A stretch of DNA of 35,318 bases from Limisphaerales bacterium (lineage in GTDB: Bacteria; Verrucomicrobiota; Verrucomicrobiia; Limisphaerales; SXTU01): positions 1 through 35,318 of the forward strand of contig JBAYGL010000002.1 of the NCBI GenBank assembly GCA_041666725.1, in the 5' to 3' direction. Under the pieces are notes generated by a model. That model searched no databases. It worked only from the letters and a program-made list of their open reading frames with translations, and had not been told where the DNA came from. How positions within the stretch are numbered: the stretch's first letter is position 1; each line of letters begins with the position of its first letter. Position numbers and translations under genes: made by a program. Of this stretch, positions 1-12,714 are shown piece by piece.

Positions 1-2515
1 CGACAACCCCGCTGCCGATGTCCGGGCGCTGGCCCTTGTGCCACCACAGCACCAGCGCGCTGGCGATGTAGATGGACGAGTAGGTGCCGGTGGTGACGCC
101 GACCAGGAACATGAAGGCGAAGTCGTTGATGACGCCGCCGCCGAAGACATACAGCACCAGCGTGGCGAGGAACACCGTGCCGCTGGTGATGATCGTCCGG
201 CTCAGTGTCTGGTTGAGGGCCTGGTTCACCAGCTCCAGGAACGTCCCGCGCACGCCCAGTTTCAGGTCCTCGCGGATGCGGTCGAAGATGACGATGGTGT
301 CGTTGATGGAGAAGCCGATGATGGTGAGGATGGCCGCGACGCTGGTGGCGTTGAACTGCCGGCCTTCGCTCCAAAGGGAGGTGAGGCAGTAGATGCCGAT
401 GGTCATGAGCACGTCATGCACCACGGCGAGCACCGCGCCGATGGCGAAGCTGAACTCGTAGCGCACCGCGACGTAGAACAGGATGCCGAAGAGGGACAGC
501 ACCACGGCCCACAACGCGCTGTTCATGATCTCCCGGCCGATGACGGCGCCGACCTGCCGGGACTGCTTGAGGTCAAACTTTGCCTCGGGGAAGGCCTTCA
601 CCAGCGCCGTCTTCACCGCTGCGCCGGACTGCGAGGGGACGGTGATGCGCAGGGTCTCGGACTTGGCCGCGATGTTCTGCTGATACTGGATCGTCGGATC
701 GCCCACCTTGCGCTTCTGCGTCACGGCACCTTCATTGAACTGGTATTCCACCTCGGCCACCGCGTGACGGAGCTTGTCGGTCTCGACCTTCTTTTCAAAG
801 CTGAACATCAACGCGTCGCCGCCGAGGAAGTCCGGGCCAAACACCTGCTTGCCGCGGGCGAAAACGCCCCAGCTGCACCCGATGACGATGATCAGCCACG
901 AGGCGATGAAGGCCGGCCTGGCCCACCGCATGAAGTCGATGTTCGTCGCCTTGATGACGTGCATCATCGGCAGCGCGGTCAGGCCGCGCGTGAGCATCCA
1001 GTCGAAGATCAGGCGCGTGATGACCAGCGCCGTGAACAGGCTCAGGGCCACGCCGATGGTCAGCGCGACGCCGAAGCCCTTCACCGTGCCGGTGCCGAGA
1101 TAAATCAGGATGACGGAGGAAATCAGCGTGGTGATGTGCGAGTCGAAGATGGTCCCGAACGCGCGGTCATAGCCTGCGGCGATGGCACCGCGGATGGACT
1201 TGCCCTTGGCCAGCTCCTCGCGGATGCGCTCGTAGATCAGCACGTTCGCGTCCACCGCCATGCCGACGGTGAGCACGATGCCCGCGATGCCCGGCAGCGT
1301 GAGCGTGGTGCCCACCGAGCACATGACGCCCAGCAGGATCACGCTGTTGAAGATCAGCGCGACGTCCGCCACGAAGCCCGCCTTGCGGTAATACACCAGC
1401 ATGAAGATGGCGACGGCGAGCGTGCCGTAGATCGCCGCGCTCAAGCCGCTCTGAATGGCATCGCGACCGAGCGAGGGGTCCACTTCCTCGGTGTCGAGCA
1501 GGCGGACGGGCGTTTCGAGCGGATTCTCGAGCACGTTGGCGAGCTGCCAGGCTTCCTTCAGGTCAAAGTCGCCGTTGATGACGCCGCTGCCGCCGAGGAT
1601 TGGCTCGTTGATGACCGGCGCGGAGTAAAGCTCGCCGTCGAGCACGATGGCCATGCGCTCGCGGGTGTGCTCCTTGGTCAGTTCGCCGAAAATCCTGCCG
1701 CCCTCGGCATTGAACTTGAAGGTGATCTGCGGACGGTTCGAGACGTTGTCGCGGATGACTCCGGCACGCTCGATGAATTTGCCCGTCAGGCCGCGCTCGG
1801 CCTTGGTCTTCACCAGGACGCGGTCCAGATAATCCCGGCCGTCCTGGCCTTTCCGGCGCTGCATCAGCACTTCGTGGCCCGGGGCCATGAGGCCCTGCGC
1901 CATCATCCGGTCGCTGTCGGGGTGAACCATGCGGAATTCCAGGAAGGCGGGCTTGGTGAGCGCGTCGCGCACGGCGTCGCGCTCGGCCTGGCTCAGGCCG
2001 GGCATCTGCACCACGATGCGGTCCTCGCCCTCGGCGACGATGATCGGCTCGGCCACGCCGAACTTGTCCACGCGCTTGCGGATGACTTCGATGGCCTGGC
2101 TGACGAGCGCCTTCTTGTCCACCGTCTGCGCCATCTTGTTCGTGTCCACGCCCACGAGGAACGACGTGCCGCCGCGCAGGTCCAGGCCGAGCTTGATCTT
2201 GCCGGAGGCCTCACGCTGGAGGCGGCCCAGGATGGTCCGGTTGGGATCCTTTTCCCCGGCCACGCTGTAGGCGACGAAGTTCGTCAGCGAGTTGGTGCCG
2301 ATGGCGTCGCGGAAATTGGCGAAGTTGCGCTCGGGAAACTGCTTGTCCAGCTCGCGCGCCTTTTTGACGACGGCGTTGTAGTTGGTGTCCTTGCGGGTCG
2401 CGCGCTCCTCGAAGACGTCAATCAGGTTGCGGTCGGCGGGCGGGTATATCTCGTAGGCCGCCCAGGCGGTGATGAACAGGACGAGGATGGCGCGCCAGAA
2501 ATTGTTGCGTTGCAT
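1..2515 (-). CDS. secDF: Protein translocase subunit SecDF (fused SecD-SecF), C-terminal end cut by the window edge
   Basis: Absent from the ORF track because there is no stop in the window. Manual reverse translation from ATG (plus-strand cat at 2513..2515) gives MQRNNFWRAILVLFITAWAAYEIYPP...GKIKLGLDLRGGTSFLVGVD, which is SecD-like. Codons near the window start read GFSINDTIVIFDRIREDLKLG...GTYSSIYIASALVLWWHKGQRPDIGSGVV, the canonical SecF C-terminal motif. It lies directly downstream of yajC. Confidence 0.9.
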   Translation of the reverse strand, partial: MQRNNFWRAILVLFITAWAAYEIYPPADRNLIDVFEERATRKDTNYNAVVKKARELDKQFPERNFANFRDAIGTNSLTNFVAYSVAGEKDPNRTILGRLQREASGKIKLGLDLRGGTSFLVGVDTNKMAQTVDKKALVSQAIEVIRKRVDKFGVAEPIIVAEGEDRIVVQMPGLSQAERDAVRDALTKPAFLEFRMVHPDSDRMMAQGLMAPGHEVLMQRRKGQDGRDYLDRVLVKTKAERGLTGKFIERAGVIRDNVSNRPQITFKFNAEGGRIFGELTKEHTRERMAIVLDGELYSAPVINEPILGGSGVINGDFDLKEAWQLANVLENPLETPVRLLDTEEVDPSLGRDAIQSGLSAAIYGTLAVAIFMLVYYRKAGFVADVALIFNSVILLGVMCSVGTTLTLPGIAGIVLTVGMAVDANVLIYERIREELAKGKSIRGAIAAGYDRAFGTIFDSHITTLISSVILIYLGTGTVKGFGVALTIGVALSLFTALVITRLIFDWMLTRGLTALPMMHVIKATNIDFMRWARPAFIASWLIIVIGCSWGVFARGKQVFGPDFLGGDALMFSFEKKVETDKLRHAVAEVEYQFNEGAVTQKRKVGDPTIQYQQNIAAKSETLRITVPSQSGAAVKTALVKAFPEAKFDLKQSRQVGAVIGREIMNSALWAVVLSLFGILFYVAVRYEFSFAIGAVLAVVHDVLMTIGIYCLTSLWSEGRQFNATSVAAILTIIGFSINDTIVIFDRIREDLKLGVRGTFLELVNQALNQTLSRTIITSGTVFLATLVLYVFGGGVINDFAFMFLVGVTTGTYSSIYIASALVLWWHKGQRPDIGSGVV

Positions 2516-3125: not shown

Positions 3126-4415
3126 TTGTTTCCCCTCGTGAGCACCCGTGCCCGTCCCTCCACCTTCGCCCTCCTTCGCATCGAGGCGGTGGAGAGCTGC
3201 GTCATGGCCCTGGCCGCGCTGGCCGCGCACAAGCTCCGCTCCGCGCTGACGCTCGTAGGCGTCACCGTCGGCGTGTTCAGCATCATCCTGGTGATGACCG
3301 CGATGCGCGGCCTCCAGCAGAACATCGAGGGCGAGTTGAGCGGGCTGGGTGCGAACACCTTCACCATCGAGCGGTGGCCGGCGATCTCCTTTGAGGGGCC
3401 GTCTGGCTGGGAGAAATATCGCCGCCGCAAGAACCTCACCCTGTCGCACTGGCATGCGTTGCGTGACCAGGCCACGCGCGCCCGGAGCGTGGCCGCCGAA
3501 GCGCCGGTGGCCTCGGGCGAGGTGGCTTCACGCTTCGACACCACGAACCCTGATGTCGGCGTCATCGCCGTCACGCCGGAGGCCTTCGCCGCGCGGAACT
3601 GGATCGTCGAAGCGGGCAGGGGGATCCTGCCCGGGGATCTCGACAGCTCACGCAACATCTGCGTGCTGGGCAACACGGTGATGAAGAAGCTCTTTCCCCA
3701 GGGCTCGCCGTTCGGTGAGAGCGTCAAGTTCATGGGTGTGAACTACCATGTCGTCGGCTACCTCGAACCCAAGGGCGGCCTTGGCGGGCAGGCGCAGGAC
3801 AACTTCATCCTCATCCCCATCACCACGGGCTTGAACCGCTTTGGCGGCACGCAATGGCGCAGCCTGTCGCTCTACGTCCAGGCGCACGGCCAGGGCGACA
3901 TGGACGACACCATGGAGCAGGTGCGCGGCGTCCTGCGCAAGGCCCGCAAAGTCCCGCCCGGCGAGCCGGACGATTTTGAAATCTCATCCAACGACTCGCT
4001 CATCGCGCAGTTCCGGGACCTCACCCTGGCCATCCGCGCGGGCGTGGCGGTGGTCAGCAGCATCGCCCTCCTGGCCGCCGGCGTTGGCATCATGAACATC
4101 ATGCTCGTCTCCGTGACCGAGCGCACCCGCGAGATCGGCATCCGCCGCGCCATCGGGGCGAAGAAGCGGAACATCCTCACGCAGTTCCTCGTGGAGGCCG
4201 TCGTCATCTGTGAAATCGGCGGCGTCATCGGCATCGCGCTCGGCATCGTGGGCGGCAACCTCGGCGCGCTCTACCTGAAGCTCCCGCCCGTCTTCCCCCT
4301 CGACTGGGCCGTCATCGCGCTGGTCATCTGCTCCGTTGTCGGCATCGCCTTTGGCACCTATCCCGCCATCAAGGCCGCAAACCTCGACCCGGTGGAGTCG
4401 CTGCGCTACGAGTGA
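3126..4415 (+). CDS. ABC transporter permease, MacB/FtsX family
   Basis: The 429-aa ORF has an N-terminal TM (KLRSALTLVGVTVGVFSIILV), a large periplasmic domain, and a C-terminal FtsX-type bundle (SVTERTREIGIRRAIGAKKRNILTQFLVEA ... YPAIKAANLDPVESLRYE). The start is uncertain: ATG 3126 or in-frame GTG 3138. Confidence 0.85.
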   Translation: MFPLVSTRARPSTFALLRIEAVESCVMALAALAAHKLRSALTLVGVTVGVFSIILVMTAMRGLQQNIEGELSGLGANTFTIERWPAISFEGPSGWEKYRRRKNLTLSHWHALRDQATRARSVAAEAPVASGEVASRFDTTNPDVGVIAVTPEAFAARNWIVEAGRGILPGDLDSSRNICVLGNTVMKKLFPQGSPFGESVKFMGVNYHVVGYLEPKGGLGGQAQDNFILIPITTGLNRFGGTQWRSLSLYVQAHGQGDMDDTMEQVRGVLRKARKVPPGEPDDFEISSNDSLIAQFRDLTLAIRAGVAVVSSIALLAAGVGIMNIMLVSVTERTREIGIRRAIGAKKRNILTQFLVEAVVICEIGGVIGIALGIVGGNLGALYLKLPPVFPLDWAVIALVICSVVGIAFGTYPAIKAANLDPVESLRYE

Positions 4416-4448
4416 GGCGAGGCCGTCGTAGGCTGCAATTACGACAGC

Positions 4449-5327
4449 TTGGCCACCGAATCGTCTGTCCCTATTCTCAATCCCGTGACTGCTGAAACGC
4501 ATTTCAAAGGCTGGGCCAAACCAGGCCCGGTGCCGCCGGGCTTGAGCGCCGGCCTGACCGTCGCCCCGGACGAGACGCTGGACGCCATCAGCGGGCACTT
4601 CCGCCTGTTCCAATTGCGCGATGGTCATCGCTTCTCAACGGACGACATTCTCACAGCGTGGTATGGCACGAGCTGGTGTCCCACGGCGCGCACGGCGCTG
4701 GACCTCGGCAGCGGCATCGGCACGGTGGGGATGATCGTGGCGTGGCGGTTGGCCGGCGCGCGATTGGTGACGGTGGAGGCACAGGCGGCAAGCGTGGCGC
4801 TGGCCCGGAAGTCGGCGTGCTTCAACGGCGTCGAGGACCGCTACGAAATCCGCGAGGGCGATTTCCGCAGCCCGGACGCGCTGCGAGCGGAGGAGCGTTT
4901 CGACCTCATCACCGGCAGCCCGCCGTATTTTCCGCCCGGCACCGGCGTGGAGAGCGATCATCCGCAGAAGCTCGCCTGCCGCTTCGAGCTGCGCGGGACG
5001 GTGGCGGACTATTGCAGCACGGCGGCACGCCACCTTGCGCTTGGTGGATTCTTCGCCTGCGTGTTTCCCTACGAACCAGCGCAACAGGCGCGTGTGGAGG
5101 CCGGGGCGCGCGAGGCGGGTTTGGTCATCGTGCGCCGGCGTCCGGTCGTGTTCCGCGAAGGCGAAGCACCATTGGTTGGCCTGTTCGGCATGATGCGCGC
5201 GACGGATTTGCCCGAGTGGTTTCGCGGGCAGACCTGGACGGAGCCCGAGCTCATCATCCGCACCCGCGATGGCAAGATTCACCCGGAATACTCCGCCGTG
5301 AAACTGGCCATCGGCTTCCCGCCGTGA
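4449..5327 (+). CDS. Class I SAM-dependent methyltransferase, N6-adenine type (TrmN6/YfiC-like small-domain methyltransferase)
   Basis: Motif I is LDLGSGIGTVG and motif IV is ITGSPPYF, the (D/N/S)PP(Y/F) motif of N6-adenine/N5-glutamine methyltransferases. The start is uncertain: the track uses TTG 4449, there is no ATG upstream of the fold, and GTG at about 4485 is an alternative. Confidence 0.75.
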   Translation: MATESSVPILNPVTAETHFKGWAKPGPVPPGLSAGLTVAPDETLDAISGHFRLFQLRDGHRFSTDDILTAWYGTSWCPTARTALDLGSGIGTVGMIVAWRLAGARLVTVEAQAASVALARKSACFNGVEDRYEIREGDFRSPDALRAEERFDLITGSPPYFPPGTGVESDHPQKLACRFELRGTVADYCSTAARHLALGGFFACVFPYEPAQQARVEAGAREAGLVIVRRRPVVFREGEAPLVGLFGMMRATDLPEWFRGQTWTEPELIIRTRDGKIHPEYSAVKLAIGFPP

Positions 5328-5328
5328 A

Positions 5329-8300
5329 TCATTCCCACGCGCACAGGCTCTCGACGTAAGCCGCCGAGCCGTCACGGAGCCAGCCGTCGAGCTGGGCCTG
5401 ATCCTTGAGCTGCTGGCCGCGGGCGCGGTCCACGACGAGGAAGCGCGAATCAATCTCCGGCAGGGCGGTGAGATCGCCCCAGAGCTTTTCGAACTGCGCG
5501 ACGGGGAAAACGTCTTCCTGCCCGTGGCCCCAGCGCTTCTTCACGTCTTTCGTGGTGATGTAAGTCGGCACCTTCGCGGCAAGCGCACGGATTGCGGCGG
5601 TGATTTTCGTGTCTGCCTCGTCCTGTAGCCGCCGAGGTGAGGAGGCGGATTTCGTGGTTTCACCAAATTCCGCCTCCTGACCTCGGCGGCTACGCAGAAT
5701 GTCTTCGCGCGTCAGACCCAGCGCGCGCAGAAAACCATCCACGTCAATCCATGTTGTCAGCGTGTTGTAATAGCTCAGGCCAAACTCCAGCTCCTCGTGC
5801 GGCATCGCGAGACCCTCGACCAGCCGCGTGCGCCCGTCCACGCGCGCGAGACCACCGCCGCGATCATCGAGCCGGCGCGTGATGACCTCGAAGCTCAAGG
5901 TCGCCCCGCTCGCGAGATGCTGGCCCAGCAACGCCGGGTCGAGGTTTGCGCCGGTGGTGTCAATGTTGTGCAGCAGCAAGGTCTTGAGCTGTGGACGCTC
6001 GCGGAGCAGCGCGGCGAGCGTGCCGTTGCGCAGCAGGTTTGGGACTTCGTAGAAGTGGCCGACGGGGTGGAGGCATTGGAGCGGCAGGTTGTCGCGGTAG
6101 TCCGTGGCTTCGCCGGCGGACTCGGCCCAGCGCAGGAGCGCGGCGCGCAAGGAGTCGCGGACTTTCTGCTGCTGCTCGTCGAGCACCTGCTGCGGCATCT
6201 CCTCCCACGCGAAGCGCAGATCGCGCGCCGTCGGCACCAGACGCAGGCCGACGCTCGCGCCCCGGCTCAGGAGCAGCGAGCCGTCGTAGCCGTAGTTTTG
6301 GTTCGCCCCGAGGAACTCCGAAAGCGGAGCGTGCGTGAGGTAACTCGTCGTGACCACGTGCGGGACGGACTTGCCCGCGAGCCGGGCGACCTTCCGTGAC
6401 TTGGCAAGGTGAACTTCGAGGAACGTGCGGTGCCGTCCGCCGAGTTTGCAGAATGGATGCAGCGACTTCACCACGCCCGCGCCTTGAGTCCAACGGCTGG
6501 CGGCTCCGGCAGCCAGCGTGACCACGGCGGCTTCACCATTGCGGAGAGCGGCGAGCCCGCGCTCCCGTAGTAGCTCGGGCCGCCGGCCCGAGGTTGTAGA
6601 GCGGACTGCCAGTCCGCTTCCTGCGCCCTTTGGCGGTGGCAACGGCTCCGAGGCTGCGGGCTGGCAGCCCGCACTACCTGCCGGGCTGGGAGCCCGGCCT
6701 ACTGTGGCACCGGCTTCGGGCGCAAGCGCGGCACTGCCCCAACCGAGCCGATACGCGCCCTTGGCCAGGCCCGCCTGGGCCGGATTGGCCTCGATGTAGC
6801 GCCCGTAGCGGTCCAGCTCCGCCTCGTTGCGGACGATGTGGTCGAAGGACTCCTCCTGCCACAGCGTGCCGGTGCGACCGAGGCGGCGGTTGATTTCCTT
6901 GGCGGTGTAGGACTTCCAGGTGTGCAGCAGCCTGGTCAGCTCATGGCCCATCACCGGACGCACCAGCAGGTGGACATGGTTGGGCATGATGACAAAGGAG
7001 CCAAGCTCGTAGCGCTGACCGTCGAAGTGCCGCAGACATTCCTCGACCACGTCGGCGATGTCCGAGCGGGTCAGCGCGCAGCTCCCGTGACCTTGGTCCA
7101 GCTCGCGCTCCTGCCATTCCCAGAGAAACTCGGACAGCTCACGTCGTCGCTCTGCGGTCAGGGTGCCGGGATAGCGCTTCAACCACTGCTCCCGCTCTTC
7201 TTGCAACTGGCGAACTTTCGTCTGCGGCAGGGAGTCCGCGAGGCGGAAGGTGACGAAGTAAGTCCCGCCATCCTGCCGCCAGTGCGGCAGGTGCCGGAGG
7301 TAGATGCTGGCGGGGCGTTTGGGGTCGAAGGCGGTGAACCGGGTGCGCCCCACAGACGCGGCCAGTGGCTCGGGCCGCCGGCCCGAAGTTGTAGAGCGGA
7401 CTGCCAGTCCGCCGGGAGGACTGGCGGGCTCAATGGCTGCGGAATGAGCCGCATCAGTTGCGGGCTGGCAGCCCGCGCTACTTGCCGGGCTGGCAGCCCG
7501 GCCTACTACAGCGGGCGGCTCCGCTGCCTCGGGCAGTGTTTGCGTTCGCGCCCCGTCACGCATGTCGGTCACGTCCTCCGGGCGGACGTCTTCGATGACG
7601 CTGTTGGCCGGCAGCCGGTTCTGCGCGAGGCCTATGCGCCCGCTTTTCAAGTCAGCGCGGATGGCTTCGTGGGCTTCGCGGTCGAAGCCATTCGCGGCGA
7701 GCAACTCGTCGAGCGTCTGCGTGCCGGCTCTCTCCTCCTTCAAGCGCGGGAACATCGTGTCGAACAAGGTCTGCACCATGCCGCGCAGCTCGGGCTTGGC
7801 CCGGCAGGCGGCGGCAAACTTGTCCAACTCGGCGCGGCGCGCGGCGGGGAGTTCCTGGCGGTCGGTGCGGAGCAGGCTCGGAACGGTCAGCGCGTAGTAA
7901 CCGGAAGGCATCAGCGCGGCGTCGGTGGCGAGGAGGTCGGCACAGGTGCCGCGCTCGTTGATGGCGTAGTCGAAGACCACCGGCTCCATCGCGAACGGCA
8001 GCGCGTGCTGCAATTCACGCTTTGTCGCGGACATGATTTCCTGCAAGCGCCGCTGGCCCTCGGCCTTTCGCCCGGGCGCGAAGATGAAGCCCATGCCGCC
8101 GCCACTCATGCCGCCGAGCATCCAGAAGCCCCAGAAGTCATCGCCGAACTCGCGACCGACGCGCTCGATGAGCTGCTCGGTGAAGTAAGTCGAGGCCCAC
8201 GGGATGATGGCCTGAATCGGCTCGCGGAAGTTGCGCGTGGTGGCGGCGCCGAGGGCACGGATGTCGCCGGCCTTCAGCGCGGCAAGGACTTCGTCGAGGA

Positions 8301-9792
8301 TGCGAAGCGCGTCCTGGCGTCCGCGCCACTCGGCTTCGCAGCGCAGGAGATACTTCTCCGTGACCATCTCGAGAATCGGCCCGACGTTCTGCGCCATGCC
8401 GCCGTGAACGAGCACGAGGGAGTCTTGCAGTTTGCGGCGCGTCTCGGCGGAGGCGTCGTCGAGGTTGAGGATGCGGTGCTGCGGCATGAGCCGGCCGCGA
8501 GAGACGCCGAACTCGGGGTCGCCTTCGCCGGCGATGACGCCCTCGATGAGCTTCATGCCGGGCCAGACGCCGCCGCTGTCCTGCCAGCCGCCGCCCGAGC
8601 CGCCGAGCCATTCGCCCAGCAACGCGCGGGCGAGCACGATGCGGCGCTCATTCTCCTGCAATTCTCCGGTGAGCGACGAGGCCTGTCCCGTCGCGCGCAT
8701 GAGCACGCTCACGAGCGAGCCGAGCAAGTTCGTGCTGACGGCGAGGCGTGAGCCTTTGGGAATGTCGTTCACACACGAGACGAGTTCCAAACCGCGCCCC
8801 GGCCCGACGATGCGCGCGAGCAGTTCGGCGAGGCTTTGCCCGCTGCCTTCAATGCCCGGCGGCACAACGCCCGCCGCGATGACGGCGGCCTTGAGCAGGC
8901 CGAGGTAATCCTTCGCGAAATCAAACACGTCGGACAGCGCGGTGAGGTCCGCCGTAGCACCCAAGTCCACCGAGGTGAGGCGCAGCACCGGCTCGTCGAG
9001 CACGCGGAGCCACGCGCTGACGGGCGGACGCGGCGCGGTATCGCGGCCGTGGATGCCGAGGTCCACGGAGACGTTGAGCACCTTCGCGCCTTCGGGGAAA
9101 TCCATGCCGAGGAAAAAGATATCGCTCCACGCCGAGTGCGTGAGGTCCATGCGCACGGGCGTCAGCTCGCGGAGAATCGGGTAGGTGCCGTCGGGCGCGC
9201 GCTGAAGCAGCTCGGGGCGGAGGCGGAGTGGCTGGTCGGCGGGATGACCGACGCGGAACATCCACTGGTTGCCGCGCACGCTGCGGACGCTGCGGCGGAC
9301 CTGGTCCGCGAGCGTCTGGAAGGCGAGGCGGTGATAGGCGTTGGCGAGCGCGGAGCAAAGGCCGTCGCTGGGGCCGTGCTTGGCTTGCGCGGCGAGGAAG
9401 GTGTCAATCGCCTCTTCGAAGCGGCGGTGGAGGAGCTGCTCGTAGCCACCGAACGGGATGAGGCCCGTAGCCGCCGAGGTAAGGAGGCGGACCTCGGTGG
9501 CATTGTCAGTCTTAGGAATCCGCCTCCTCACCTCGGCGACTACCAGCTTTGCCGGCAAATGAAACCGATGGATGGCGTAGAGGAAGAAGAGGGCGCGGAC
9601 GCGTTCGTAGAGGTTGTCCGCGCGACGGCGGAAGGCGTCGAGTTCGGCACACTCGGCGAGGAGTTGGGCGGCGGTGAGGTCGCGGCACTGCGCGTCGAGC
9701 GAGGCGTTGCGCCTGGCCGCTTTTCGGGAAGTGATGAGATCAACGAGCATGGGGTGAATTGAGGATTGTCCTACCCTGATTTGCTTCCTCAC
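5329..9792 (-). CDS. Bifunctional sugar kinase-like (fucokinase-type GHMP) / UDPGP-family NDP-sugar pyrophosphorylase, carrying four in-frame REPIN insertions and a nested RAYT
   Basis: A single 1487-codon ORF. The N-terminal module has GHMP/fucokinase signatures: [18 protein letters not shown] (divergent motif II), [12 protein letters not shown], and [12 protein letters not shown] (motif III). The C-terminal module is UDPGP-like: [19 protein letters not shown] ... [29 protein letters not shown] ... [10 protein letters not shown]. The start is either GTG 9792, which overlaps the upstream stop as GTGA, or ATG 9750. The foreign elements inside it are listed as separate features. Confidence 0.75.
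5625..5693. repeat. REPIN-like palindromic element family 2, copy 1 (in frame in the UDPGP module)
   Basis: GTAGCCGCCGAGGTGAGGAGGCGGA (5625..5649) pairs with TCCGCCTCCTGACCTCGGCGGCTAC (5669..5693). This is a 25-nt inverted repeat with 1 mismatch and a 19-nt loop. The total length is 69 nt, which is 23 codons, translated as (R)[23 protein letters not shown]. Confidence 0.75.
6568..6704. repeat. REPIN family 1, copy a (inverted doublet of a ~50-nt REP)
   Basis: Arm A spans 6568/6574..6617 (ctcgggccgccggcccgaggttgtagagcggactgccagtccgc). Arm B spans 6656..6704 (gcgggctggcagcccgcactacctgccgggctgggagcccggcctactg). The reverse complement of A aligns with B along its whole length, and the spacer is 38 nt. 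Each arm contains two short hairpins, for example GCGGACT-GCC-AGTCCGC and GCCGGGCTG-G-GAGCCCGGC. Confidence 0.8.
6736..7353 (-). CDS. REP-associated tyrosine transposase (RAYT, IS200/Y1 HUH family) module, in frame with the host ORF and lacking its own stop codon
   Basis: Host residues 814-1019 read (V/M)[37 protein letters not shown]...[14 protein letters not shown]...[12 protein letters not shown]...[35 protein letters not shown]. The HUH motif HVH is at 6970..6978 and the candidate catalytic Tyr at 6907..6909. A possible own start is GTG at 7351..7353. There is no in-frame stop before the host stop at 5329. Confidence 0.8.
7363..7508. repeat. REPIN family 1, copy b
   Basis: Arm A at 7369..7412 differs from copy a at 1 of 44 positions. 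Arm B at 7460..7508 differs at 4 of 49 positions. The 47-nt spacer is unrelated to that of copy a. The offsets between copies (795 and 804 nt) are both multiples of 3, so both copies are read in the same frame (GRA.SPA.SAGCQPA ... [14 protein letters not shown]). Confidence 0.8.
9467..9543. repeat. REPIN-like palindromic element family 2, copy 2 (in frame in the kinase-like module)
   Basis: GTAGCCGCCGAGGTAAGGAGGCGGA (9467..9491) pairs with TCCGCCTCCTCACCTCGGCGACTAC (9519..9543). The 25-nt arms are the same as in copy 1, with 2 mismatches between arms. The 27-nt loop differs from copy 1. It is translated in a different frame from copy 1, as [26 protein letters not shown]. Confidence 0.75.
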
Positions 9793-10634
9793 TTCGCCCG
9801 CTGCGCCAGCAGCTCCACCAGCCCCGTCAGCACTTCATCCCGGTCCTTGCCGCTGAGGGCCAGCGCGAGTTGCGCGGTGAGCAGGCCGTAGTGCGCGCCG
9901 ATGTCGTAGCGGCGACCGGTCAGTTCGGCGGCGAGGTAACGCTCCTTGCGCGCGAGCTTGGCCAGCGTGGCGGAGAGGTGGACGCCGCCGCGTGTGCCGG
10001 CCGCAGCGACTTCCTCCGCCAGCAACGCCATGACGGTCGGCGTGAGAACGTGCATCCCGAAGAAGCAGAGGTAGTGGCCCGCGCGCAGGCCGGGGACGAT
10101 CAGCCGCTGCTCGGCTTCTGTGGGGGTGGGCTTCTCGACGACCTCGGTGATTTCGTAGAGGCCCTTGCGCGCGGCGACGAGGCGTCCGCCCACTGCACCG
10201 TAGTAAGGCAGCTTGCTCTCGTGCGTGGCCTGCACGGCGGACACGGCGCAATCCTCCTTGGCCGCGACCTCGACAAGCTGCTGCGCACACCGGCGGACTT
10301 CGCCACTGACGTAAAGATGGTCACCGACGAGCAGGAGGAACGGCTTCTTCCCGGCGAACTTCGCCGCGCACGACACCGCGTGGCCGTAGCCCAGCGGCTG
10401 CTTCTGCTCGACGAACTCCAGGCGCTTCGCGTGCTCACCGGCTGCGGCGCGGTAAGCCTTCTCATCGCCGGGGCAGACCACGACGCACAGCTCCTCGATG
10501 CCCGCCGCGAGGACTTCCTCGATGATGATGGCCAGGGCGGTCTTGGTCTGGCCGTCGCGGTCCACGAGGGACTGGAGCGGGAGCGTGCGCTGGCTCTTGC
10601 CGGCGGCGGTGATGATGGCGCGTTTGATGTCCAT
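9789..10634 (-). CDS. Sugar-phosphate nucleotidyltransferase, GalU-like (divergent)
   Basis: Internal ATG (cat at 10632..10634) of track ORF 9789..10802. The product starts [53 protein letters not shown]..., resembling the GalU N-terminus, but the G-x-G-T-R loop is replaced by GKSQR. The PLGYGHAV and VGDH segments are GalU-like. Its stop overlaps the candidate GTG start of the next gene. Confidence 0.7.
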
Positions 10635-10971
10635 GTGGAGAAAGTGATCTGTGTTCTGGCAGCAGCCCGGTCGCCGGGGGACTATGCCGGAAACAGGTCT
10701 TCCGTTGCCAGTTCGGAAGAATGCGGGTCTGGAGGAAGCCGCATCTACAGCCACTTCCCGACTTCCCCTGGCGCCTGCGGTCCGGTATTCATTCCGCGCC
10801 AATTGTCCCGGCCTGATGGAACAACGAGCACAACTTGACGTCCGTGATCGCGAGCCTCATCGGCCCGCTCTTGTGATGACGGCGAAGCCTGGCGACTCGG
10901 TCCGCCTGAACATTTTTGCCGGCAGATTCCGCTTTCTTCACACCTGTTCCACCCTGACACTTTCCTGACCT

Positions 10972-11655: not shown

Positions 11656-12714
11656 ATGAAGTTCAGGGCAGCCATTCTCACCGAGCTGAAGCAGCCGCTC
11701 GTGATTGAAGAAATCGAGTCCGGCCCGCTGCGCTTCGGGCAGGTGCTCGTGAAGATCCATTGCAGCGGCATCTGCGGCGCGCAGATCAATGAGATCGAGG
11801 GCGCGAAGGGCCCGGACAAATTTCTCCCGCACCTGCTCGGTCACGAGGCGACCGGCACCGTGCAGGAAGTCGGCGAAGGCGTGACGAACGTAAAGCCCGG
11901 CGACCGCGTTGTGTGTCACTGGCGCAAGGGCGCGGGTCTGCAGGGGCCGGTGGCGGCCTACACGTCGAAGCGTTTCCCCAAGATCAACTCCGGCTGGATC
12001 ACGACCTTCGGCGAGTATTCCGTCGTCTCCGAAAATCGCGTCACGCGCATCCCGGCGGACTTCGACGCCGAGGCCGGCGCGCTCTTCGGCTGCGCGGTCA
12101 CGACCGCGATGGGCGTGCTGAACAACAACGCCAGGCTCGGCATCGGCGAGAGCATCGTCATTCTCGGCACCGGCGGCGTGGGGTTGAACCTCGTGCAGTT
12201 CGCCGCGATGGTCGGCGCTCACCCGATCATCGGCGTGGACTTGCACGACCACAAACTGGCGCTGGCCAGGAAGCTCGGGGCGACGCACACGCTCAATGCG
12301 CGCGGCGTGAATCTCGTCGAGGAAGTCCGCAAGATCGTTGGCGCGGCGGGCGCGGATGTGGCCATCGAGAACACCGGCCTCGCGGACATCATCGAGCAAG
12401 CCTACGAGATGACGGCGTCGCAGGGCCGGGTCATTCTCGTCGGCGTTCCGGCAAAGAGCGCGCGGCATCCGAGTTTTTACACGCTGCCGTTGCACTTCAA
12501 AAAAGTGCTGACCGGTTCCGAAGGTGGCGACTGCCGGCCCGAGGTGGACATCCCGAAACTCGTGCGGCTCCATCAGGCGGGGAAGCTCAAGTTCGACGGT
12601 CTGGTGAGCAAACGTTACCGCCTCGACGACATCAACGAGGCCATCGACGACTTGAAGCAGGGCCGCGCCGCCGGGCGCTGTCTCGTCTGGATGGACGAAC
12701 CGCCGTCTCGTTGA
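11656..12714 (+). CDS. Zinc-dependent alcohol dehydrogenase family (MDR) oxidoreductase
   Basis: The 352-aa ORF has CSGICGAQ and GHEATGTV (catalytic Zn ligand region) and the GTGGVGLNLVQFA dinucleotide fold. Confidence 0.85.
   Translation: MKFRAAILTELKQPLVIEEIESGPLRFGQVLVKIHCSGICGAQINEIEGAKGPDKFLPHLLGHEATGTVQEVGEGVTNVKPGDRVVCHWRKGAGLQGPVAAYTSKRFPKINSGWITTFGEYSVVSENRVTRIPADFDAEAGALFGCAVTTAMGVLNNNARLGIGESIVILGTGGVGLNLVQFAAMVGAHPIIGVDLHDHKLALARKLGATHTLNARGVNLVEEVRKIVGAAGADVAIENTGLADIIEQAYEMTASQGRVILVGVPAKSARHPSFYTLPLHFKKVLTGSEGGDCRPEVDIPKLVRLHQAGKLKFDGLVSKRYRLDDINEAIDDLKQGRAAGRCLVWMDEPPSR

Follow-up and report, generated by a model that had tools for sequence, protein, structure and literature searches.

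REP-associated tyrosine transposases (RAYTs) and the repetitive extragenic palindromes (REPs) that accompany them are defined, and usually searched for, as extragenic elements. A RAYT together with its REPs is termed a REPtron (PMC3733652), and the known cases consist of a RAYT/TnpA-REP gene (yafM of Escherichia coli and its counterparts in Pseudomonas) flanked by REPs or bacterial interspersed mosaic elements (BIMEs), or by REP doublets forming hairpins (REPINs; PMC3333891, PMC3479197, PMC3116915, PMC5581495). Known REPtrons stand free in extragenic DNA and have a start and a stop codon of their own. By contrast, the REPtron described here, which is part of a 35,318-nt stretch of DNA of a Limisphaerales bacterium (contig JBAYGL010000002.1; the whole stretch is referred to as the window), is nested in frame in another gene without either of them. 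From the comparison of its sequence with those of relatives we consider it probable that this REPtron lives in frame in a variable surface loop of a sugar-1-kinase/UDP-sugar pyrophosphorylase gene and is translated together with its host. Moreover, known REPtrons are usually single-copy and described as vertically inherited, whereas the nested RAYTs have often been gained, lost or replaced by another lineage at one and the same site.

In-frame REPs as such are not new. Intragenic GTAG and CGTC REPs that are read in frame were reported by Di Nocera et al. 2013 (PMC3733652); the verrucomicrobium Opitutus terrae had the most of them, and DnaE, tRNA synthetases and repair genes were among the hosts. 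Such palindromic GTAG repeats contribute 20-80 extra residues in presumed loops, and the Rickettsia palindromic elements are, as far as they are covered where PMC3733652 cites them, likewise in-frame palindromic repeats within proteins. The two REP clusters of the window (144 and 135 nt) contain no stop codon and encode segments that are predicted to be disordered; like those at four further loci (L097, L109, L114 and L115) they behave as the intragenic REPs of PMC3733652 do. Intragenic REPs and Rickettsia elements are, however, short repeats only, whereas the insert in the window comprises about 310 residues including a transposase of about 200 codons with a folded catalytic domain. Surveys of RAYTs set 'unexpectedly long' proteins aside, taking them for fusions or misannotations (PMC6006769). 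Full-text searches of the literature, whose coverage is incomplete, retrieved no account of a RAYT that is nested in frame in a different gene; a whole nested REPtron thus appears to be undescribed within the literature searched.

With inteins the nested RAYT shares the properties of a selfish in-frame element that resides in conserved, often essential genes (DnaE, aminoacyl-tRNA synthetases), is patchily distributed among close relatives and has a phylogeny incongruent with that of its host. Unlike an intein it has no Hint fold, no conserved splice-junction residues and no homing endonuclease, its enzyme is an HUH single-strand DNA transposase, its junctions are hypervariable, and the insert presumably stays in the mature protein. 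An intein was rejected because the junction segments vary in length and sequence and because the Y1_Tnp family is the only domain match of the insert. Insertion sequences of the IS200/IS605 type are similar in that a Y1 HUH enzyme is placed between similar hairpin-bearing ends in direct orientation, an arrangement compatible with single-strand excision and integration. They differ from the nested element, the ends of which are multi-REP clusters and which shows no tnpB and no evidence of multiple identical copies: a tblastn search revealed no second RAYT copy in the window, and the list of open reading frames (ORFs) contains no tnpB nearby. The IS200 model (transpos_IS200) scored 19.9 bits on the RAYT against a cut-off of 55, far less than the REP-type model, and this assignment was rejected as well.

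The host ORF is open throughout positions 6568-7508, with zero stop codons, and encodes from the N to the C terminus a fucokinase-like kinase, the RAYT core between two copies of a four-REP cluster, and a UDP-sugar pyrophosphorylase core (Table 1). A reading made from the sequence alone (the sequence-only reading) had proposed a RAYT with both flanking REP clusters in frame within this 1487-codon ORF and without a stop of its own. This proposal has held up, and the arrangement recurs in relatives. The kinase assignment comes from residues 211-589, which resemble the kinase portion of the bifunctional fucokinase/guanylyltransferase FKP (NCBIfam model NF009948), and the N-terminal part of the host contains many columns that are invariant across homologues. 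Pfam UDPGP was matched at residues 1243-1351. A Foldseek search with a 787-residue model (residues 701-1487) returned UDP-sugar pyrophosphorylases only (UAP1/AGX/UGP structures, E about 3e-12), which confirms the host module and is uninformative on the RAYT domain. The UDPGP-type matches of both Pfam and Foldseek are restricted to the host region that follows the insertion.

In a GC-rich genome such as that of the window an open frame is by itself weak proof. Long ORFs are frequent in every frame, spuriously so because of the high GC content, and one of 637 aa (6838-8751, plus strand) runs antisense to the host gene. Such ORFs on all strands speak for the view that the frame is open by chance in a recently inactivated gene, or that it arose artificially during assembly or annotation of a genome so rich in GC. 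We attach practically no probability to this view, since the same in-frame architecture is found in 87 protein clusters and seven species genomes and recurs across independent ENA, JGI, NCBI and Logan assemblies. With the full host protein as query, homologues of 1340-1540 aa spanned 99% of it at 62-78% identity. When RAYT content was read in the 120 best protein clusters, 87 of them carried a RAYT at the same host site, always in frame. In a genome scan with one genome per species, at least 595 Verrucomicrobiota-type genomes had the host gene; a RAYT was present in seven of the 80 best loci that were inspected (L001-L006 and L008), and in all seven one frame comprises the kinase and the RAYT, as well as the pyrophosphorylase wherever the contig reaches that far. 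The chance of a few percent that the sequence-only reading had estimated for the open frame is superseded by these comparative data, in which every RAYT-bearing homologue is in frame. The names under which host homologues are annotated are inconsistent ('transposase', 'RayT' or 'UTP--glucose-1-phosphate uridylyltransferase').

Ratios of nonsynonymous to synonymous substitution rates (dN/dS) were determined by the Nei-Gojobori method. They ranged from 0.06 to 0.28 for the host domains, and the comparison of the window with its closest empty relative (L081) gave 0.09 for the host; the host gene is therefore alive. Alignment of the orthologues showed that an empty site exists. A recently killed gene, one of several options in the sequence-only reading, is refuted by the low host dN/dS and by the conservation of the frame in about 90 clusters, and invariant host motifs and RAYT catalytic residues likewise argue against a dead gene or an artefact. 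The RAYT itself yielded dN/dS values of 0.05 (L083 versus L098) and 0.17-0.20 (window versus L083 or L098). Purifying selection acts on its catalytic residues and fold no less strongly than on the host domains.

Within the insert, a Pfam scan produced Y1_Tnp as the sole domain match (residues 924-1002; 33.2 bits, cut-off 23). The only solved structure matched by sequence search was E. coli TnpA-REP (4ER8), in which Y115 and N119 are the catalytic tyrosine and a metal ligand, respectively. Across 89 distinct in-gene RAYT copies that diverge down to about 42-45% identity, H939, H941 and Y999 are present without exception and N1003 is present in 88. The HVH motif had been located correctly by the sequence-only reading. 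The tyrosine at 6907-6909 (Y962, within WKSYTA) that it had put forward as the catalytic one was rejected: only six of the 89 homologues have tyrosine at this position, where Phe or Val is found in most homologues, and the catalytic residue is Y999 instead. The nested RAYT, an HUH nuclease with a single tyrosine and conserved H-u-H, Y and N residues for which 4ER8 is the closest solved structure, resembles those of known REPtrons. In an AlphaFold model of residues 701-1487 the RAYT stretch folds as a domain of its own (predicted local distance difference test score, pLDDT, 76-96), and both REP-encoded linkers are without secondary structure (pLDDT 25-44). The linkers, translated from GC-rich hairpins, are hypervariable with nearly no conserved residues and measure 12-141 aa on the N side and 13-77 aa on the C side in the 89 in-gene copies.

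Neither a start nor a stop codon belongs to the cassette itself, no promoter was detectable in it, and its length preserves the host frame. A Met precedes the RAYT in just nine of the 89 copies, and no other residue is conserved at its N-terminal boundary; a stop codon after the RAYT was found in none of the alleles examined. A sigma-70 promoter scan detected no promoter-like site for the RAYT, which is weak evidence because verrucomicrobial promoters may differ. Of the options considered in the sequence-only reading, a RAYT that hitch-hikes on host translation is the best fit to these features. The option of a tolerated insertion in a loop or linker is supported by the loop of 8-16 residues in empty alleles, by the hypervariable, predicted disordered linkers and by the RAYT being its own domain. 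Alternatively, the RAYT might be expressed separately if an internal start (e.g. GTG 7353 or a leaky site) or proteolysis of a linker freed the RAYT or a RAYT-pyrophosphorylase, in which case nesting would be mainly a transcriptional piggy-back. Long and predicted disordered linkers are good protease substrates, the N-side linker contains GTG and TTG codons, and stand-alone proteins of about 200 aa are the commonest form among relatives of the window RAYT. Nevertheless, the rarity of a preceding Met, the unconserved N-terminal boundary and the negative promoter scan make separate expression unlikely. Moreover, a protein started internally would extend through the entire pyrophosphorylase core, as the frame is not closed behind the RAYT in any allele.

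The flanks of the RAYT (6569-6703 and 7364-7507) are copies of one unit of about 140 nt that are 94-96% identical (D1, 96%; D2, 94%), and their direct-repeat periods of 795 and 804 nt are each divisible by three. Each cluster consists of two GTAG hairpins on the coding strand followed by two on the opposite strand. Seven of the eight hairpins begin with GTAG at the 5' end of their own strand, the remaining one with GTGG. The seven GTAG-tagged hairpins of the window, all of them inside the two flanks, compare with 0.47 expected from shuffles. The flanking REP doublets noted by the sequence-only reading are both present in frame, but it had missed that one cluster is a direct repeat of the other. 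Among ten copies of the REP pair 99.3% of the cells are paired, and four of the eight base pairs of REP 1 have changed on both sides, one stem position occurring as CG, AU, GC and UA; the observed covariation was reached by none of 500 shuffles. REP 2 is invariant in this set because it served as the search pattern. The REP hairpins are thus kept as nucleic-acid structures through compensatory changes, and their translation is incidental. As in known REPtrons, hairpins occur in both orientations on both sides of the RAYT, and the REP family covaries with the RAYT lineage: GTAG hairpins are found in the window and in L083, CTAGT hairpins in L082 (identical to P0001).

Table 1. Features of the nested REPtron and of its host gene (positions are those of the 35,318-nt window)
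Feature	Position	Strand	Remarks
Host ORF	5329..9792	-	1487 codons and stop; kinase, REP clusters, RAYT and pyrophosphorylase all in one frame (ORF list)
Host N-terminal part, aa 1-744	7561..9792	-	Fucokinase-like GHMP-type kinase and conserved stretch up to aa 744
Left junction segment	7508..7560	-	18 residues, origin unassigned; carries small hairpin 7522-7538; replaces short loop (..HTSQKKPLVE) of empty alleles
Upstream REP cluster	7364..7507	-	144 nt, in frame; two forward and two reverse REPs
Upstream cluster, forward REP 1	7506..7484	-	GTAG-GCCGGGCTGCCAGCCCGGC
Upstream cluster, forward REP 2	7481..7460	-	GTAG-CGCGGGCTGCCAGCCCGC
Upstream cluster, reverse REP	7391..7412	+	GTAG-AGCGGACTGCCAGTCCGC
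Upstream cluster, reverse REP	7365..7387	+	GTGG-CTCGGGCCGCCGGCCCGAA
RAYT core, aa 818-1020	6733..7341	-	HUH Y1 nuclease domain; no own start or stop codon
HUH motif H939-V940-H941	6970..6978	-	Aligns with H59-M60-H61 of E. coli TnpA-REP 4ER8
Catalytic tyrosine Y999	6796..6798	-	Motif YIxxNP; aligns with Y115 of 4ER8
N1003	6784-6786	-	Metal-ligand equivalent; aligns with N119 of 4ER8
Downstream REP cluster	6569..6703	-	135 nt, in frame; direct repeat of upstream cluster
Downstream cluster, forward REPs	6702..6680 and 6677..6655	-	
Downstream cluster, reverse REPs	6596..6618 and 6570..6592	+	
Host C-terminal part, aa 1078-1487 and stop	5329..6561	-	UDP-sugar pyrophosphorylase core

About 30 protein clusters whose host parts are 90-96% identical to those of the window have no RAYT. 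In its place they contain a short loop, such as HTSQKKPLVE, which is variable and 8-16 residues long in empty alleles. Junctions of filled and empty alleles were read by eye; a global MAFFT DNA alignment had mis-aligned them. In a neighbour-joining tree of the host, alleles with and without RAYT are interleaved throughout, and in the tight host clade of the window the only carriers are the window itself and P0001/P0002, which are not sisters. The hosts of the window and of P0001/P0002 are 92-94% identical but their RAYTs only 54-55% (93% versus 55% for P0001), and the comparison of the window with L082 gave a dN of 0.047 for the host and 0.45 for the RAYT. Host pairs of 95-97% identity fall into two groups with RAYTs that are either 44-54% or 73-98% identical, and the reverse discordance, with hosts 75% and RAYTs 80% identical, occurs too. 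Because the closest hosts are empty and near-identical hosts carry divergent RAYTs, the cassette must have been gained, lost and swapped at one loop. Vertical descent combined with loss only was rejected on the grounds that some hosts of 95-97% identity hold RAYTs that are just 44-54% identical, whereas in other pairs of equally close hosts the RAYTs reach 86-98%. Bertels et al. 2017 characterise RAYTs of their groups 2/3 by single-copy occurrence and vertical inheritance; the discordance between host and RAYT identities and the patchy presence show that descent is more than simply vertical here.

The host residues that border the cassette in the window are of the type of the local clade and not of that of its nearest RAYT relative L083. 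Entry of the cassette therefore seems to act within the loop, and import by homologous recombination via the host flanks is not favoured. Solo REP hairpins are present in the loop of some empty alleles (L018), and other empty alleles are clean. As to the host itself, identity to the window amounts to 71-75% for the kinase part and 84-86% for the pyrophosphorylase part in some homologues (e.g. P0053, P0060, P0067 and P0088), and other homologues have the opposite or an even pattern; this unevenness suggests a recombination breakpoint near the loop.

Two further explanations have to be measured against this turnover. The cassette might be excised conditionally in part of the population, mediated by the RAYT or by the repeats, and the open frame would then be incidental. 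Flanking direct repeats of about 140 nt with 94-96% identity and periods that are multiples of three would lend themselves to excision, and filled and empty alleles do coexist in close relatives. Yet rescue by excision would make an open frame needless, and the frame is open in all of about 90 clusters despite the hypervariable linkers; empty alleles near the window are clean and lack the solo cluster expected from recombination between repeats. We therefore regard conditional excision as highly improbable. The HUH domain might also have been recruited for a new task in the host enzyme, such as DNA or nucleotide tethering or regulation, and no longer process REPs. Strict conservation of the catalytic residues and low dN/dS would be in line with such a role, as would the nearly exclusive clade into which the RAYTs in this host gene fall. 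Closely related host alleles, however, manage without a RAYT, RAYT lineages have been swapped among nearly identical hosts, each lineage is still bordered on either side by its cognate REP hairpins, the changes in which are compensatory, and members of this RAYT family also sit inside proteins with unrelated functions. A new host function is thus very unlikely, and the domesticated HUH domain contemplated in the sequence-only reading is not favoured for an element that is patchy, swapped between lineages and travelling with its cognate REPs.

The nested lifestyle extends to other genes. In a neighbour-joining tree the RAYTs of this host gene form one nearly exclusive clade that also includes copies nested in dnaE (P0123, P0243), in an XdhA-like gene (P0242) and in another ORF (P0241), and this mixture suggests jumps between genes. 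A search with the RAYT core among 1.84 billion cluster representatives gave 13,910 matches, of which the best 150 were inspected. Sixty-five of these 150 exceed 390 aa, and in 39 the RAYT is nested between stretches of at least 120 aa, the host never being the kinase/pyrophosphorylase gene of the window. Other hosts are a Rad3/DinG-like helicase, the leucyl-, alanyl- and valyl-tRNA synthetases (LeuRS, AlaRS, ValRS), HypF, RecG, an ADH-GFO two-domain oxidoreductase and an N6/N4 DNA methylase (P0244, P0284/P0387, P0337, P0340, P0383, P0342, P0309/P0390, P0322 and P0341); in P0309, P0340 and P0390 the RAYT was detected by phmmer and is below the Pfam threshold. A complete DnaE of 1474 aa (P0391) has Y1_Tnp at residues 1014-1087, between the finger and HhH domains. 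It was used in place of L084, where a RAYT of the same clade is nested in dnaE (DNA polymerase III alpha; 6001-6996), because the L084 contig has several frameshifts that are probably sequencing errors. RAYTs nested in other proteins are again flanked by direct repeats of REP-encoded peptides, and according to their source names several of the nested-RAYT proteins stem from Akkermansiaceae and Verrucomicrobiales.

REP clusters were found in further genes, too. A metagenome scan used the pattern GTAGYGCGGGCTGCCAGCCCGC, and most of the matches belonged to an unrelated element resembling a miniature inverted-repeat transposable element (MITE) that shares the hairpin; only L088, L095, L097, L098, L109, L114 and L115 resembled the REP clusters of the window. 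The four-REP unit of the window lies in frame in an IleRS-like ORF of 868 aa (L115, about 1150-1290, minus strand), in reverse orientation in a pyruvate carboxylase ORF of 1088 aa (L109, about 1430-1600), and within ORFs of 466 and 708 aa in L097 (about 4400-4560, minus strand) and L114 (about 12270-12430), respectively. Three of these loci (L097, L109 and L115) are part of the OFDN01 assembly, as is L098, a RAYT-bearing host allele of the window's RAYT lineage.

More generally, and with our confidence evenly divided, we propose a REPtron lineage with an obligate intragenic in-frame lifestyle. Its members would be translated as an extra domain of housekeeping proteins (kinase/pyrophosphorylase, DnaE, LeuRS, AlaRS, ValRS, RecG, HypF), their frame would be guarded by the downstream host residues, and they would move as an in-frame unit between alleles and genes, as a non-splicing counterpart of inteins. 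Read-through translation would make the RAYT an extra domain of the host enzyme that is tethered by two floppy REP-encoded linkers, and the nested RAYT may remain an active single-strand DNA nuclease/transferase acting on REPs. Selection on the C-terminal pyrophosphorylase core would purge frameshift and nonsense mutations from the cassette, and the host gene would therefore be a safe harbour that shields the RAYT from its usual decay. Loss may occur by in-frame deletion, for which recombination between the direct-repeat clusters, with their periods of 795/804 nt, is a possible route; gain or swap may take place by re-integration or by REP-level recombination limited to the loop.

Some points weigh against the interpretation of the window as a REPtron that turns over within the loop and is translated with its host. 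The NCBIfam model REP_Tyr_transpos scored 71.3 bits, just under its equivalog cut-off of 80, and the GTAG hairpin scan of the 35-kb window found zero REPs away from the RAYT flanks. In the empty alleles nearest to the window the loop is short, clean and devoid of REPs, with no sign there of integration at a pre-existing REP. The neighbour-joining trees carry no support values, and the argument for turnover leans mainly on pairwise identities. Finally, internal GTG/TTG starts or proteolytic release may take the place of a single polypeptide.

A number of other observations concern the surroundings and relatives of the REPtron. Directly upstream of the host gene is an NTP_transferase-like gene (9789-10802, minus strand) whose stop overlaps the GTG start of the host (GTGA, 9789-9792). 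The two probably belong to a sugar-activation operon, because an NTP_transferase-like neighbour also precedes the host gene in L081 and L083. A copy of the window's REP unit lies just upstream of the host gene in L003. In L083 (P0026 allele) a second in-frame forward GTAG REP pair is found near the host N-terminus (10227-10285), at a site that corresponds to a region variable in all homologues (window residues ~83-110). The unrelated MITE-like repeat of about 100 nt that shares the GTAG hairpin (ctggtggttacccacaagtct-GTAGCGCGGGCTGCCAGCCCGC-aggcgagccgcctgcgccacagagatgtgtacaatcaccag) occurs in large numbers in samples Ga0163200 and Ga0163199, frequently at the ends of contigs (L086, L087, L089, L090, L093, L094, L099, L104, L107, L110, L113, L116 and others). 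Many methyltransferases of the Eco57I/MmeI type (type IIG or BREX-like) have a RAYT domain (P0245, P0247, P0248, P0264, P0269, P0281, P0315, P0367 and P0376), which may reflect repeated nesting or a genuine nuclease-methylase architecture. RAYTs of the stand-alone sister group are fused to a D-Tyr-tRNA deacylase, a PF01954 protein or a CPSase large-subunit D3 (P0130, P0135, P0152, P0169, P0134 and P0228); running on into a neighbouring gene is therefore frequent beyond the nested clade as well.

If whole REPtrons live in frame within essential genes, a sizeable niche has been overlooked, given the 39 nested cases among the best 150 representatives. Policing of the reading frame by selection on the host would explain the long persistence of a domesticated transposase, and DnaE and aminoacyl-tRNA synthetases would provide natural examples of tolerated domain insertions of about 300 residues. 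HUH domains form covalent protein-DNA adducts, and this raises the question of how a host enzyme behaves while it is tethered to DNA. Nesting in frame appears to be a widespread lifestyle of this well-studied class of elements.

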